From UHGV virus genome UHGV-0305646: DNA of 9,024 nucleotides. One strand, given 5' to 3'. This document shows positions 5,425 through 9,024 of the stretch, one piece after another. Within the stretch, counting starts at the first letter, position 1. Every line of letters begins with the position of its first letter. The translations under genes were made by a program, and so were the position numbers. Below the pieces are notes generated by a model that searched no databases, was not told the origin of the DNA, and worked only from the letters and a program-made list of their open reading frames with translations. The DNA comes from a virus.

Positions 5425-6519
5425 ATGGCGGTTTATGTAGTAACAGGCAAATTAGGCTCAGGCAAGACACTTGTTAGTGTTTCCAGAATACAGGAAAGAC
5501 TTGCTAAGGGTTGTCCTGTTGCCACTAATCTTGATCTTAAATTGCATAATATGCCTATGGTTGGGCGTTATGCGAAAAAAACGCGCGTTATTCGCATTCC
5601 TGACAAGCCTTCATTAAATGATTTACTTGCTATTGGTATTGGGAATACATCTTACGATGAATCCCGTAATGGCCTCCTTGTACTTGATGAATGTGGTACT
5701 TGGTTTAATTCCCGCTCATGGGGTGATAAAGACAGACAACCTGTTATTGACTGGTTTTTACATGCCAGAAAATTAGGCTGGGATATTATATTTTTGATTC
5801 AGGATATTTCGATAATGGATAAGCAAGCTCGTCTGGCGCTTGCTGAGCATGTTGTTTATTGTCGCCGTTCAGATAAATTAAACATTCCTTTTGTTGGCTC
5901 CATTATGAATTTGGTTTCAGGGGCGAGATTTTCTTTACCAAAGGTACACTTTGGCATTGTCAAATATGGTGATAATGTTAATTCAATCACTGTTGATAAA
6001 TGGATATATACAGGAAAATCTCTTTATTCTGCTTACAATACCAAACAAGCGTTCACAGATAATTATCCTCATGGCGCATTTTCGCTTTTGCCACCATTTA
6101 TCACGCACGGTCAATTTTCTGTTCACAGAGGATTTAATTATTATATGCGCCTCACTAAAATTTATTTTCGCAAATCGAACCGTCTTATATTAATGCTTTC
6201 TTTTTTGGCGCTGGGGCTTGCGTTTGGTTTCTGGCTCCAGTCTGGAAAGAATGTTGATGAAATCTCAGCTATTAAATCTGCTTATGCTGAACAGGCGAGG
6301 GCGGTAACGCCTGATTCGTCCAGTGACTTACCCCGACTTTCTATTAATTCTTTTTCACAACTTGGCTTTGACGTTTCCGTTACGTTTGTTGATGCAAAAG
6401 GTATGAAATATCAGTATTTTGATTTGATTAAAGATGGTTATTCCGTTGATATTAAAGATGCCTGTCGTGTTGTTATTAGAAAAGGCCGTTATTTACAGAC
6501 TGTTACCTGTCAGGAGTAA
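5425..6519 (+). CDS. gI: Assembly ATPase, gene I-like (Zot family P-loop NTPase)
   Basis: N-terminus MAVYVVTGKLGSGKTLVSV with Walker A GSGKT; LVLDECGTWFNSRSW and WFLHARKLGWDIIFL closely resemble Ff pI as I recall it; a single TM segment lies near residue 255. Confidence 0.9.
   Translation: MAVYVVTGKLGSGKTLVSVSRIQERLAKGCPVATNLDLKLHNMPMVGRYAKKTRVIRIPDKPSLNDLLAIGIGNTSYDESRNGLLVLDECGTWFNSRSWGDKDRQPVIDWFLHARKLGWDIIFLIQDISIMDKQARLALAEHVVYCRRSDKLNIPFVGSIMNLVSGARFSLPKVHFGIVKYGDNVNSITVDKWIYTGKSLYSAYNTKQAFTDNYPHGAFSLLPPFITHGQFSVHRGFNYYMRLTKIYFRKSNRLILMLSFLALGLAFGFWLQSGKNVDEISAIKSAYAEQARAVTPDSSSDLPRLSINSFSQLGFDVSVTFVDAKGMKYQYFDLIKDGYSVDIKDACRVVIRKGRYLQTVTCQE
6145..6519 (+). CDS. Candidate in-frame internal product of gene I (gene XI analogue)
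   Basis: Internal Met241 (ATG 6145) lies just before the TM segment, the same residue position as the Ff pXI start as I recall it. No convincing SD, so this rests on analogy. Confidence 0.3.
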   Translation: MRLTKIYFRKSNRLILMLSFLALGLAFGFWLQSGKNVDEISAIKSAYAEQARAVTPDSSSDLPRLSINSFSQLGFDVSVTFVDAKGMKYQYFDLIKDGYSVDIKDACRVVIRKGRYLQTVTCQE

Positions 6520-6526
6520 TATTATT

Positions 6527-7792
6527 ATGCGCTCTGTTATTGTTGCTTTTTTATTTGCCTGTTCATTCTGCGTTTCTGCTGAAACTGTTAATTTAAATAA
6601 TTCATCTGTTCGCTCATTTGTTCAGTGGTATTCTTCAAAAACTGGCAAGCCTGTTATTGTTAATCCTGATATTAAAGGAAACGTAACCGTATTTAATGCT
6701 GATGTTAATCCAACAAATATTGATGATTTCTTTAAGTCTGTTCTGAATGCTAACGGTTTTGTCATGCTTTCTGGCAATCCTGCGGTAGTCTCTTTGCCGT
6801 CTAAATTACCTTCACAGATGGTTTCGGATTCCGATGATTCTGATAACCAGTCTTATGATACTTTTCCTTCTGAGCCATCTTACCAGCCAGTACCTGTGGC
6901 GCTTACGGTCAGAAATTTTAAGCTGACAAAAGTTAGATCGTCCGATGTTCAGCAACTGATTAAAATTTATCTTGATTCTAATGGTGGTGGTAATGTCGTG
7001 GATTATCCAGGCAATAACTCGCTGATTGTTTCTGCGCCTGACGAGCTGCTGCCGGTTCTGTCCGATTTTATCAATTCTGTGGATGTTGCCCGCGATCAGG
7101 TTCTCATTCAGTCGCTGATGTTTGAAACCAGCTTGTCTGATGGCGTTGATTTATCGTTTGCGGCAGGTTCTGCATCCGGTCATAAGGTTGCGGGGGGCTT
7201 TAATACTTCTGCACTGGGTAGCGCTCTTTCTACGGCGGGCGGTTCTTTTGGTATTTTTGATGGTAACGTGTTGGCGCTGTCTCTGCGTGCTGTCCAGAGT
7301 AATTCACGCTCTAAGGTGATTTCAACGCCGCGTATTCTTACTCAGTCTGGTCAGACTGGTTACATTTCCGTAGGTAAGAATGTGCCGTTTATCACCGGAA
7401 AGGTAACGGGCGAATCTGCCGGGGTAAATAATCCGTTTCAGACTATCGAGCGTCATGATGTTGGCGTTTCTCTCAAGGTAACGCCTGTTGTCATGGGTAA
7501 CGGGCAACTAGTTCTGACTATCGACACTCGCGCTGATTCAATCAGCAATGATGATCAGGCATCCGATATTATTACTAATCAGCGCCAGATTCAGACGACA
7601 GTCCAGATTAAGGATGGTCAGACGTTGTTATTGGGGGGGCTTATCGATTCATCGTTCAGCAATGCCGAGCGTTCAGTTCCAGTTATAAGTAAAATTCCTC
7701 TTATAGGCTGGATTTTCAGTAGCAAGGCAGACAGCAATGAACAGCGTATTATGTATATTTTGCTTACAGCACATATCATTCGTCCACTTTGA
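6527..7792 (+). CDS. gIV: Outer-membrane secretin, gene IV-like
   Basis: Track ORF 6434-7792; ATG at 6527 begins signal peptide MRSVIVAFLFACSFCVSA. The C-terminal secretin region (GQTLLLGGL...VPVISKIPLIGWIFSS) and many blocks (GGSFGIF, NVPFITGKVTGESA, NNPFQTIER) resemble Ff pIV. Confidence 0.9.
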   Translation: MRSVIVAFLFACSFCVSAETVNLNNSSVRSFVQWYSSKTGKPVIVNPDIKGNVTVFNADVNPTNIDDFFKSVLNANGFVMLSGNPAVVSLPSKLPSQMVSDSDDSDNQSYDTFPSEPSYQPVPVALTVRNFKLTKVRSSDVQQLIKIYLDSNGGGNVVDYPGNNSLIVSAPDELLPVLSDFINSVDVARDQVLIQSLMFETSLSDGVDLSFAAGSASGHKVAGGFNTSALGSALSTAGGSFGIFDGNVLALSLRAVQSNSRSKVISTPRILTQSGQTGYISVGKNVPFITGKVTGESAGVNNPFQTIERHDVGVSLKVTPVVMGNGQLVLTIDTRADSISNDDQASDIITNQRQIQTTVQIKDGQTLLLGGLIDSSFSNAERSVPVISKIPLIGWIFSSKADSNEQRIMYILLTAHIIRPL

Positions 7793-7836
7793 TGGATAGC
7801 GGGTAGGTGCGTGAGCCCTGCTCGCTATCCATCAAA
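7788..7836 (+). terminator. Long hairpin overlapping the gene IV stop: candidate terminator and/or packaging-signal hairpin
   Basis: TTTGATGGATAGCG (7788-7801) pairs perfectly with CGCTATCCATCAAA (7823-7836); the 21-nt loop is partly self-complementary. No T-run follows. In Ff the packaging-signal hairpin sits directly after gene IV. Confidence 0.4.
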
Positions 7837-7861
7837 TGGACATTATTGATTGGGGTAACTA

Positions 7862-8170
7862 ATGGATTCTTATGGGATTTTATCTGCTCTGGCAGAACGA
7901 ACGATTACAGCGGAAGAAGCAAAAACAATGACACTTGCAGCCAGAAGTTCTTCGGCTCAGGTAAATGAAGCATCACTTGCTCTGTTACTGATTGATAATA
8001 CTCTGGATGCGATCAAAGCAGCTGCCAGTGAAGGGAAAGGATACACTTTACTTCCTTCTTATGAGATTTCTGTAAAAGCCATTGATTTAGCAGAAGAATT
8101 TTTAAGGAAACAATGCGGCTATGTTATTGATAACCAGAATGGCGTAAGGACGGTCTATTGGTTTATATGA
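7862..8170 (+). CDS. Hypothetical 102-aa protein
   Basis: Complete ORF with a weak SD; sits between two long hairpins in the gene IV to dif interval. No family recognised. Confidence 0.4.
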   Translation: MDSYGILSALAERTITAEEAKTMTLAARSSSAQVNEASLALLLIDNTLDAIKAAASEGKGYTLLPSYEISVKAIDLAEEFLRKQCGYVIDNQNGVRTVYWFI

Positions 8171-8171
8171 T

Positions 8172-8216
8172 AACCCCGGACAATGACAAAACTTGCTTTT
8201 GTTAGTGTCAGGGGTT
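8172..8216. other. Long imperfect hairpin (20-bp stem, 5-nt loop); candidate ssDNA origin or packaging structure, or a terminator
   Basis: AACCCCGGACAATGACAAAA (8172-8191), loop CTTGC, TTTTGTTAGTGTCAGGGGTT (8197-8216) with 2 mismatches and 1 G-T pair. A T7 run follows at about 8237-8243. Confidence 0.35.
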
Positions 8217-8287
8217 GGCCAAGCCGAACAATTCTGTTTTTTTAGCGTTATTGCTGATTCGGCGCGGCAGCATTACGAGGAGATAAA

Positions 8288-8521
8288 ATGCAATTTTTCA
8301 CATCCAGCGATACTGTAATGTTATGTGCGAAGACCTGCGATCGCTGTGGTCGCCATGCGAAGACGGTGGTAGATGACATTGAGTTCAATGAGTTTCTGTC
8401 TGTTAATCACTTAGCTGGATACGGTTCAATTTTTGGTGACAGTAATCGCTTAAAACTGGATTTATGCCAACATTGCCTGAAAGACGTCCTGGGCCAGTGG
8501 ATTACGGTCTGTGACCAATGA
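8288..8521 (+). CDS. Hypothetical small Cys-rich protein (77 aa, CxxC...CxxC)
   Basis: Complete ORF with a strong SD (GAGGAG at 8277-8282, 5-nt spacing); CDRCG and CQHC motifs. Its last 70 bp plus the downstream sequence are duplicated at 1-123. Confidence 0.6.
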   Translation: MQFFTSSDTVMLCAKTCDRCGRHAKTVVDDIEFNEFLSVNHLAGYGSIFGDSNRLKLDLCQHCLKDVLGQWITVCDQ

Positions 8522-8574
8522 CGGCACCGGTAACGCCAGTTCCCGCCATCCTTACCATTGGTGCGCATAATGTA
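8452..8574. repeat. Right copy of the 123-bp perfect direct repeat (left copy 1-123)
   Basis: See the left copy; identity ends at 8574 inside the dif central region. Confidence 0.9.
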
Positions 8575-8587
8575 TATTATGTTAAAT
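8560..8587. other. dif: Canonical 28-bp chromosomal dif site (XerCD recombination site, attR)
   Basis: GGTGCGCATAA-TGTATA-TTATGTTAAAT matches the enterobacterial dif consensus as I recall it (XerC arm, 6-bp central region, XerD arm). Confidence 0.85.
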
Positions 8588-8730
8588 CACCTACTGTGGT
8601 AAATAAGTTCATATGACACTCCCACTAACTGATAAATCAATACGTTAGGATTTCTGATCTCCCTCTCGTTTCTTGCATTAGGTACAGAGTACATTCTCTT
8701 CATATCCATGATAATTTTGAGGTAAATATT

Positions 8731-9024
8731 GTGTATTCACTAAAGCAGTTGGTTATCTCAGGCCGTAAAAGGCGATGGATCCTGATGGACTTGGAAACCT
8801 CTCTGCCGTTGCTGTATCCCCTTAGGTACCATATTGACCATTTGGCTTTCCGCTCATTGTCCACACAGTCAGCTTCACTTCAATCTGTGAAGTTTTTTTA
8901 CGAATTCTGGAGGCAAAAGTATGGTGTCTCGTTTTGCTACAGCTTCTATTCATCTGACCACAATCCAGACATTGCTGTCGGTGAAATGCCCGCATTTTGG
9001 ATGTATCTAGAAAATGGCCACAAC
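8731..9024 (+). CDS. 5' part of an ORF that runs off the right edge of the window (host side of dif); product unknown
   Basis: GTG at 8731 preceded by GAGG (7-nt spacing); 98 sense codons with no stop to the window end (VYSLKQLVISGRKRRWILMDLETSLPLLYPLRYH...). Absent from the supplied track, presumably because it has no stop. Confidence 0.3.
   Translation, partial: MYSLKQLVISGRKRRWILMDLETSLPLLYPLRYHIDHLAFRSLSTQSASLQSVKFFYEFWRQKYGVSFCYSFYSSDHNPDIAVGEMPAFWMYLENGHN

Follow-up and report, generated by a model that had tools for sequence, protein, structure and literature searches.

The 9,024-nucleotide stretch of DNA analyzed here (virus genome UHGV-0305646; the whole stretch is referred to as the window) carries on its plus strand a complete filamentous-phage gene set, from gene II (gII, 1932-2984) through gene IV (gIV, 6527-7792), and then, before a dif site, an interval (7862-8521) that holds two small genes. 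We found that this interval is phage DNA and forms part of a tandem prophage integrated by Xer recombination at Escherichia coli dif. Taken jointly with that status and with the reality of the two genes, it is very probable that the window is a UPΦ virus (UPΦ viruses being Lineavirus-like, dif-integrating inoviruses) and that its open reading frames (ORFs) at 7862-8170 and 8288-8521 are the published genes h1 and h2 of this group (Shapiro & Putonti 2020, Virus Evol 6:veaa030; PMC7307601). The h1/h2 pair of UPΦ was already known, and no new kind of system is involved; what is new with respect to the UPΦ paper is the very large family of h2, a gene described there as having no known homologues.

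The elements of the region are arranged in the order gIV, hairpin 1, h1, hairpin 2, leader, h2 and attP (Table 1). A sequence-only reading of the window had described a 102-residue ORF between two strong hairpins and a 77-residue CxxC…CxxC ORF with a strong Shine-Dalgarno sequence, and both are present, with each hairpin folding better than all of 200 shuffled sequences and the ATG of h2 preceded 6 nt upstream by GAGGAG (8276-8281). The Shine-Dalgarno sequence of h1 is weaker, a GGGG about 8 nt upstream. A scan of positions 7600-8550 found no consensus promoter or terminator. Identical coding sequences are annotated by NCBI in E. coli MB51 and C10 (WP_000378924.1 and WP_001159442.1).

The phage-borne status of the interval emerges from its distribution. 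E. coli C10 has two head-to-tail copies of the entire unit with its two small genes, and in strain EC5502 the interval is found at 16 places. Across 5,426 complete E. coli genomes, positions 7793-8559 are present in 49, always at ≥99% identity and at a median of 2 places per genome, with both genes present together in all 49 carriers; most of the other E. coli genomes that match 7793-9024 do so at the dif core alone. A circular 7,938-bp Salmonella enterica record (NZ_CP140410.1) has the order gIV-h1-h2-attP followed by reverse-strand cargo, gII and the remaining core genes, with 99.9% identity to window positions 6527-8574 and 98.6% identity to 1507-6526; its only attP-type site, at 2034 of locus L072, lies 38 nt past the h2 stop codon. 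A Salmonella relative is represented by a 7,925-bp contig with an identical 18 nt at both ends. In the part of the EC5502 array that was inspected (locus L082) there are several tandem units with many frameshifted genes, and the frameshifts are probably noise of long-read assembly.

The sequence-only reading had left room for the opposite origin, with the right boundary of the prophage near 7850 and the hairpin at 8172-8216 as a host structure. On this account the E. coli chromosome left of dif would supply 7862-8521, and the left 123 bp would be a target duplication. The interval does abut an intact dif, and in the absence of comparative data a 123-bp repeat at both ends looks like a duplication. 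We nevertheless give this account almost no credence. The sequence to the left of dif in E. coli is different (…ccttggtttatatt/GGTGCGC…), as seen at the true attL of MB51 and of C10, and most matching genomes match the window at the dif core only. The interval is, moreover, repeated with every phage unit and lies on the circular, episome-like 7.9-kb record, and hairpin 1, to the left of h1, appears to be the counterpart of the morphogenetic signal of phage IKe, which places phage cis elements on either side of h1. The comparison with uninterrupted dif loci that had been proposed as a check bears out the phage origin, with empty dif loci that lack the interval and a true host-left flank of different sequence. 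Because of the tandem arrays, the junctions, the circular record, and the empty sites and composition, both the host-borne account and the suggestion that the phage transduces a host gene are refuted; h1 is restricted to the phage clade, h2 belongs to a mobilome family, and the guanine-plus-cytosine content of h1 (0.40) and h2 (0.44) matches that of the phage unit (0.41).

The junctions settle the prophage boundary, with the right end at the dif site at 8560-8587 and the window beginning inside an earlier tandem copy. At the left junction, the 3′ end of h2 and the phage spacer are followed by GGTGCGCATAA-tgtaggactcg-TTATGTTGAAA, identical to the copy-copy junction of C10 (L002 12109), and this junction is phage-phage (attP-type), not host-phage. 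In MB51, which has a single prophage, the true host-left flank of dif (…ccttggtttatatt/GGTGCGCATAATGT…) is instead found where that prophage begins on the left, and C10 shows it just after hipA, at the dif-like site that lies farthest to the left. The spacer at 8522-8559 has a similar sequence to the left of the Xer site in the Salmonella locus L007, and more weakly in the inovirus locus L020, and is unlike the E. coli host-left flank at L001 12035 and L002 174. To the right, window positions 8557-9024 are 100% identical to E. coli chromosomes with an integrase gene beside dif. The phage Xer site has the form GGTGCGCATAA-tgta(c/g)gactcg-TTATGTTGAAA, and the crossover is predicted to fall after TGTA in the central region because an intact dif stands at the right junction and a phage-type site at the left, inter-copy one. 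The attP region also contains an inverted repeat, I1 (129-152/165-188), and its downstream arm carries an inverted XerC-like sequence, CATTGTGCGAACC. A comparable inverted XerC/XerD arrangement has been reviewed for YpfΦ and CTXΦ (Derbise & Carniel 2014, PMC4266046), and the single-stranded DNA (ssDNA) hairpin predicted over attP in the window resembles the one described for those phages.

These junctions also account for the 123-bp repeat. Window positions 1-123 equal 8452-8574 at 100% identity, and hence the repeat noted in the sequence-only reading is real. What does not stand is its description as a duplication at the left junction; the repeat is the tail of the preceding tandem prophage copy, not a discrete duplication, and because it begins at window base 1, where the window edge cuts through that copy, 123 bp is a lower bound and not a true duplication size.

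Table 1. Features of the window around the gIV-dif interval and at the left junction (hairpins 1 and 2 and the attP hairpin folded as ssDNA)
Feature	Position	Strand	Evidence and remarks
h2 3′ end including stop codon, from the preceding tandem prophage copy	1..70	+	Equals 8452-8521; repeat starts at window base 1
Long imperfect ssDNA hairpin over the attP region	107..204	+	-30.7 kcal/mol, z = -7.4
attP-type Xer site, copy-copy junction	109..141	+	XerC arm GGTGCGCATAA, 11-nt center tgtaggactcg, XerD-like arm TTATGTTGAAA; pattern scan
gIV (secretin, 421 amino acids), last core gene before the interval	6527..7792	+	69% amino acid identity to IKe pIV; secretin annotation in relatives
Hairpin 1, overlaps the gIV stop codon	7782..7841	+	-24.5 kcal/mol, z = -8.9, 0/200 shuffles as good
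h1, UPΦ-specific accessory gene, 102 amino acids, ATG start	7862..8170	+	ORF list, phrog_4115, dN/dS
Hairpin 2, 20-pair stem, 4-5 nt loop	8172..8216	+	-15.4 kcal/mol, z = -4.9, 0/200 shuffles
h2 leader: T-rich tract and GAGGAG Shine-Dalgarno sequence at 8276-8281	8217..8287	+	
h2, 77 amino acids, ATG start, Cys4 (C17, C20, C60, C63; GYGSxFGD…DLCQHC)	8288..8521	+	ORF list, phrog_5435, dN/dS
Conserved spacer, h2 stop to XerC arm (phage side of attP/attR)	8522..8559	+	
Intact dif (attR), host DNA to the right	8560..8587	+	GGTGCGCATAATGTATATTATGTTAAAT exact match; GGTGCGCATAA-TGTATA-TTATGTTAAAT

The assignment to UPΦ follows from a comparison with IKe and with the published description of the group. 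The window has the same gene order as IKe, with amino acid identities of 60% for gVIII, 52-53% for gIII, 51% for gVI, 66% for gI and 69% for gIV (∼80% nucleotide identity for the latter), and merely 24-28% for gII; in the protein comparison with IKe, no match was found for gV, h1 or h2. The window is therefore a mosaic of an IKe-like structural and assembly module with a replication module unlike that of IKe. Within gIII, positions 4406-4555 contain seven 15-nt repeats encoding GGGES, and a variable glycine-rich GGGES linker was noted for UPΦ (PMC7307601). In the published UPΦ layout, two novel genes occupy what is intergenic in IKe, dif is followed by ORFs on the reverse strand, and the units form tandem arrays, with h1 and h2 present in all 229 viruses (PMC7307601). 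The window shares this layout, with its two co-directional genes after gIV and variable reverse-strand ORFs after the Xer site, as well as a gII unlike that of IKe, the GGGES repeats and the tandem dif integration. The same interval occurs at 99.5% identity in ECONIH2, the case-study strain of the UPΦ paper. That paper reports the gIV-to-origins interval as non-coding in IKe, I2-2 and M13 (PMC7307601), in agreement with the sequence-only reading, which had correctly taken this interval to be non-coding in Ff. Some points weigh against the assignment. The genes were equated with h1 and h2 from the published description of UPΦ viruses and not by alignment to the UPΦ901 sequence; the sequence of NZ_CP140410.1 is compatible with either a true episome or a tandem array collapsed by the assembler; and although DNase-protected UPΦ DNA was detected in supernatants by polymerase chain reaction, the amplified region is not stated (PMC7307601).

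Other filamentous phages offer partial parallels. YpfΦ is, like the phage in the window, a dif-integrated tandem inovirus with an intact dif regenerated on the right and an imperfect-dif copy-copy junction, and it likewise has two function-unknown ORFs, YPO2280a and YPO2281, with homologues in CUS-1, between the secretin gene and attR (PMC4266046). Our first reading took the phage for CUS-1/YpfΦ and the two ORFs for YPO2280a/YPO2281, and was dropped after the UPΦ paper and the IKe comparison had been considered; UPΦ901 and YpfΦ share <20% identity for all genes except II and V (PMC7307601). The phage collection searched with the window, which has no YpfΦ or CUS-1 record, gave matches to IKe and PEar phages only, and no Yersinia locus came up in the scan of species genomes. 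In CTXΦ, ctxAB is cargo located between the assembly genes and attR, an analogy drawn by both the UPΦ and the YpfΦ papers (PMC7307601; PMC4266046). The accessory-cargo slot is common to CTXΦ and UPΦ, whereas the UPΦ genes have no similarity to cholera toxin and no evident signal peptide. In Ff and IKe, the packaging signal and the minus- and plus-strand origins lie in a non-coding interval, to which UPΦ adds two coding cassettes and attP.

h1 is a clade-restricted orphan, specific to UPΦ. Apart from the UPΦ allele itself, a set of 5.8 billion proteins yielded a ∼60%-identical allele from Salmonella and, beyond these two, nothing but their fragments or fusions. A search of 185,579 species genomes gave one locus (L063), 100% identical, on a contig labeled as a Candidatus Nanosynbacter metagenome-assembled genome, which we suspect to be a mis-binned enterobacterial contig. 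The protein is acidic, with an isoelectric point (pI) of 4.7, and matches over its full length a phage protein family of unknown function (phrog_4115, E = 2e-68), with nothing above threshold in Pfam, NCBIfam or PADLOC. A search of the GenBank phage collection gave no protein match to h1 or h2, and we found no functional follow-up on either gene in the literature. A model of h1 built with AlphaFold2 (AF2) from a shallow alignment is helical with a small C-terminal β unit.

Both h1 and h2 are real genes under purifying selection, because the ratio of nonsynonymous to synonymous substitution rates (dN/dS) is 0.14 for h1, against the 61%-identical Salmonella allele, and 0.06 for h2, against a 71%-identical plasmid homologue, and because both match PHROG families; these ratios are approximate, as dS is near saturation in both comparisons. 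The reference value for gIV is 0.09. The gIV genes of the E. coli and Salmonella phages share 93% identity (dS 0.38) and their h1 genes 61% (dS 1.8), and h1 therefore appears to sit in a recombining, fast-diverging accessory slot.

In contrast to the orphan h1, h2 belongs, as judged from sequence, to a large, uncharacterized four-cysteine family of phages and plasmids. h2 is also acidic (pI 5.4) and matches phrog_5435, another family of unknown function, over its full length (E = 4.5e-46). An exhaustive profile search retrieved 1,238 cluster representatives at E ≤ 1e-3, of which 611 also pass a limit of E ≤ 1e-10, and relatives are encoded on 51 viral contigs. Homology and structure searches on both proteins had been proposed as a check in the sequence-only reading, and their outcome is this large h2 family, the orphan status of h1 and no significant fold match for either. 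The family signature is CDRCG…E(F/W)QEF…GYGSxFGDG…DLCQHC. In 36 listed members of ≥140 residues (the long members), the cysteines C17, C20, C60 and C63 do not vary, and in 63 short members each of them is either invariant or conserved to at least 90%. Nearly all of 149 domains have 40-47 residues between the two CxxC motifs. Most of the listed family members are stand-alone proteins of about 75-130 residues. The family is acidic, with a median pI of 5.0 and 94% of members below pI 7. Neither h2 nor its family has a Pfam, NCBIfam or PADLOC model, h2 itself giving nothing above threshold in these collections, and a profile search of the PDB with 63 family sequences returned spurious C2H2 matches around CxxCG only.

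From the cysteine pattern, h2 probably binds zinc. In the AF2 model, again from a shallow alignment, the first CxxC is flanked by two short strands and the second stands at the N-terminal end of the C-terminal helix, and this arrangement looks closer to a treble clef than to a classical ribbon. Hence, of the zinc-ribbon-like pattern named in the sequence-only reading, the four conserved cysteines stand, and the ribbon was a call from the pattern only, set against a low-confidence model that looks more like a treble clef. Several observations count against this picture of the two proteins. The case for zinc comes from the cysteine pattern only, and the plasmid homologue P0008 has a serine at the first cysteine position. 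The AF2 models are weak, with predicted local distance difference test (pLDDT) scores of 64 for h2 and 71 for h1; Foldseek found no PDB match to the h2 model below E = 0.4, and a search of BFVD with the h1 fold returned just uncharacterized small phage proteins (E ∼0.01).

In-frame deletion fusions of both genes with gII were also seen among the database proteins. One (P0014) joins gII residues 1-83 to h2 residues 56-77 and has 70 member sequences, and the other (P0019) joins gII 1-43 to h1 35-102. These would be deleted phage derivatives, miniphage-like or decayed prophages, that recur in public assemblies.

Longer homologues of h2 give a first indication of the company that this domain keeps. 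Among the 36 long members, 8 carry the toxin-binding C-terminal domain Xre_MbcA_ParS_C (best E = 3e-18), 1 carries TacA1 (1.5e-14), 1 carries VapB (9.6e-5) and 2 carry DUF4926, and the h2 domain occurs twice in several. An inovirus of another lineage (L020) has a 64%-identical h2 homologue directly after gIV, between gIV and attP, at a position that matches that of the YpfΦ ORFs; its 30-residue tail resembles the CcdB-binding tail of CcdA, with a Pfam match (E = 0.0086) that fails the cut-off, and NCBI calls some copies "CcdA family antitoxin". Judged from these architectures, the h2 domain appears repeatedly to take the N-terminal place of the DNA-binding or dimerizing domain in modular type II antitoxins, lying N-terminal to the recognized toxin-binding domains of the Xre/ParS/MbcA, TacA, VapB and CcdA types. 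The h2 protein of UPΦ differs from these relatives and is not by definition itself an antitoxin, because it consists of the domain alone; it lacks a toxin-binding part, and no toxin gene adjoins it. The 77-residue domain of the window h2 contains no toxin-neutralizing part and has no Pfam or NCBIfam antitoxin match; downstream lies attP/dif, and upstream lies the acidic h1, which matches no toxin family.

The gene neighborhoods of the homologues are diverse. Several tailed-phage homologues lie beside putative DNA methyltransferase genes, assigned by reading of motifs, or between terminase and portal genes, and on a plasmid-like contig (L003) the homologue is found among YubE, N6_N4 methyltransferase, ParB and StbA genes. 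On small Proteus plasmids (L073 1880-4940; L076 2145-4342), an h2 homologue is divergent from a SIR2-family gene or from a retron Ec67 reverse transcriptase gene; within this pair only the h2 gene is conserved (80% nucleotide identity), and the copy on the retron side is a pseudogene with an internal stop.

The two hairpins provide a second theme of conservation. Hairpin 1 is, from its sequence, the putative counterpart of the packaging (morphogenetic) signal hairpin of IKe, as its apical GGGTAGGTGCG..AGCCCTGC is common to the IKe stem-loop at 6141-6196, which is annotated "pot. transcription termination, morphogenetic signal", and its stem is kept in Salmonella alleles through a paired A/T to C/G change. 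For hairpin 2, an alignment of 8 distinct sequences showed 94% of cells paired, with 4 of the 20 pairs changed on both sides and one pair position found as C-G, A-T and G-C; the covariation score was reached by 0 of 500 shuffles, and slid controls were 35-51% paired. Hairpin 2 follows h1 in UPΦ and directly follows gIV in L020, is kept in a Salmonella phage that lacks h2 and, together with a conserved ∼70-nt leader, precedes the h2 homologues of plasmid loci L003 and L074. In both of these loci a Xer-type site is also present, no more than ∼1.1 kb away. A search of Rfam with both hairpins gave sub-threshold matches to miRNA precursors only.

We favor a role for hairpin 2 as a structure in single-stranded nucleic acid, possibly as an origin for the complementary strand, with a part in a 5′-untranslated region or a terminator as the alternative. 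By its rank among the elements it occupies the position that the minus-origin hairpins have in IKe; no similarity to these was seen by eye. The packaged strand of Ff-type phages has the sense of the genes, and therefore the hairpin could prime synthesis of the complementary strand but would be unable to drive h2 expression from incoming ssDNA.

Although h1 and h2 are adjacent in the window, they are separable and do not form an obligate pair. A Salmonella UPΦ-like phage has gIV, hairpin 1, h1, hairpin 2 and then, instead of h2, an apparently non-coding block of ∼330 bp followed by the same attP. Conversely, L020- and L022-type inoviruses have an h2 homologue directly after gIV and no h1. The ∼330-bp block before attP is conserved between the Salmonella UPΦ-like phage (L007 10370-10700) and L020 (5300-5600), at the place where the window has h2.

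With these data, we tentatively outline what the genes might do. h1 and h2 would be cargo of the moron type, with expression during chronic infection or lysogeny. h2 would fold around one zinc ion into a small dimerizing or binding module, similar to the N-terminal module of type II antitoxins, and would act in regulating or neutralizing toxin or defense functions met by mobile elements, rather than in virion assembly. We regard this mechanism for h2 and hairpin 2 as possible rather than probable. We have still lower confidence in a fuller statement, in which h2 is a Cys4 domain that has gone unrecognized though very widespread in mobile elements (1,238 or more clusters at 50% identity) and that serves as an interchangeable N-terminal module of antitoxin-like proteins and, when it stands alone, acts on toxin, defense or regulatory targets, traveling in inoviruses and in plasmid elements with Xer sites together with the covarying hairpin 2 as a possible single-strand initiation signal. 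Parts of the data pull the other way. The acidity of the family is unusual for the N-domain of a DNA-binding antitoxin. Beside 8 fused homologues that were inspected, we saw no RES or other recognizable toxin gene, on contigs that are mostly short, and across 38 further viral loci no neighbor of the h2 homologues was conserved, those of tailed phages lying in tight same-strand gene runs.

Two more specific versions of this binding or dimerizing module can be considered. In the first, h2 would serve in counter-defense or against toxins, as a small acidic zinc protein that blocks a host defense or toxin effector by binding to it. Small size, acidity and wide distribution in phages and plasmids all suit such a protein, as do the methyltransferase genes next to several tailed-phage homologues (by motif reading), the YubE, methyltransferase, ParB and StbA genes around the L003 homologue, the SIR2 and retron genes beside the Proteus homologues, and the fusions to toxin-neutralizing domains with no toxin gene seen alongside. 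All of this evidence is, however, gene context. The neighbors are not conserved, the retron-adjacent copy is a pseudogene, there is no PADLOC match and no known anti-defense homology, and in the fusions the toxin-binding part is another domain and not that of h2. We therefore consider a counter-defense role somewhat doubtful, though conceivable.

The second version makes h2 a zinc-finger DNA-binding regulator with hairpin 2 as its palindromic operator, in an autoregulatory circuit as in type II antitoxins. The h2 domain does stand at the position of the DNA-binding N-domain in the antitoxin-like fusions, and a 45-bp palindrome lies ∼70-115 nt upstream of h2 in four contexts, with halves that co-vary. 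MqsA is a known zinc-containing antitoxin, and its N-domain has a CxxC…CxxC arrangement followed by a helix, as in h2. A relation of h2 to MqsA was tried and rejected, as the profile comparison with hhalign gave a probability of 0.5% with an approximate MqsA sequence as the query. Models for the YgiT finger and for ECs_2282 match 1-2 of the 36 long members (E about 0.003-0.004), among them TIGR03831 with 1 of 36 (E = 0.0044). We consider the regulator unlikely, as the family is acidic, no promoter was found overlapping hairpin 2, and the perfect stem of hairpin 2 persists in the Salmonella phage that has no h2. Because of this persistence, a role of the hairpin as a single strand is favored over one as an operator.

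That h1 and h2 work together as a two-gene system is quite improbable. The UPΦ authors suggested an interaction between the two proteins (PMC7307601), and the genes are adjacent, on the same strand and present together in all 49 E. coli carriers and in all 229 UPΦ viruses (PMC7307601), with the h2 domain found in antitoxin-like proteins. However, the Salmonella lineage carries h1 and no h2, h2 is found with no h1 in tailed phages, plasmids and other inoviruses, and because of this independent occurrence no obligate two-gene system can be maintained. The genes are, furthermore, separated by 117 nt that include a conserved hairpin, both proteins are acidic and neither resembles a known toxin, and h1 diverges much faster than the neighbors of h2 (dS 1.8 against 0.38 for gIV). 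A role of h2 as an accessory factor for Xer recombination at attP, similar to that of XafT, which is reportedly a Xer recombination accessory factor of TLCΦ, is very improbable, since the proximity of h2 and its homologues to Xer sites (∼40 nt to 1.1 kb in UPΦ, the L020-type inovirus and plasmid loci L003 and L074) is offset by a Salmonella relative with the same attP that lacks h2 and by the location of most family members in tailed phages or other contexts, next to methyltransferase, terminase and portal genes, where Xer sites were not searched.

Several features flanking the interval were also recorded. After attP there is a variable slot for reverse-strand cargo (window 190-1800, minus strand), occupied here by a 193-residue TIGR04402 "mobilome CxxCx(11)CxxC" protein (1e-41, with a weak SLATT match), a 140-residue membrane protein (phrog_4174) and a 60-residue protein (phrog_2503). 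In other phage copies the slot holds a Doc-family toxin, an ECs_2282 zinc protein, STM4504/CBY_0614, a PD-(D/E)XK nuclease or DUF6953. To the right of dif (8740-9024; L001 20993-23885) lies an island that starts with two adjacent site-specific integrase genes and is present at 100% identity in some E. coli strains and absent from others. Strain C10 of E. coli has, between hipA and its first copy of the phage, 3.4 kb of non-phage DNA (L002 174-3619) that holds three hypothetical genes and has dif-like sites at its ends. It is probably an independent element, itself integrated by Xer recombination and stacked at dif.

Compared with the UPΦ paper, which reported no homologues of h1 or h2 outside UPΦ prophages (PMC7307601), the present analysis finds more than 1,200 clusters in the h2 family, antitoxin-type fusions, and the independent occurrence of h1 and h2, with no difference in kind. 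It thereby adds to the description of UPΦ the h2 family with these fusions, the separability of h1 and h2, and two conserved structured elements. The original description offered no concrete experiments, and the h2 family, the separability and the structured elements open some. UPΦ prophages are common in urinary and other clinical Enterobacterales, and h1 and h2 are their only clade-defining cargo.

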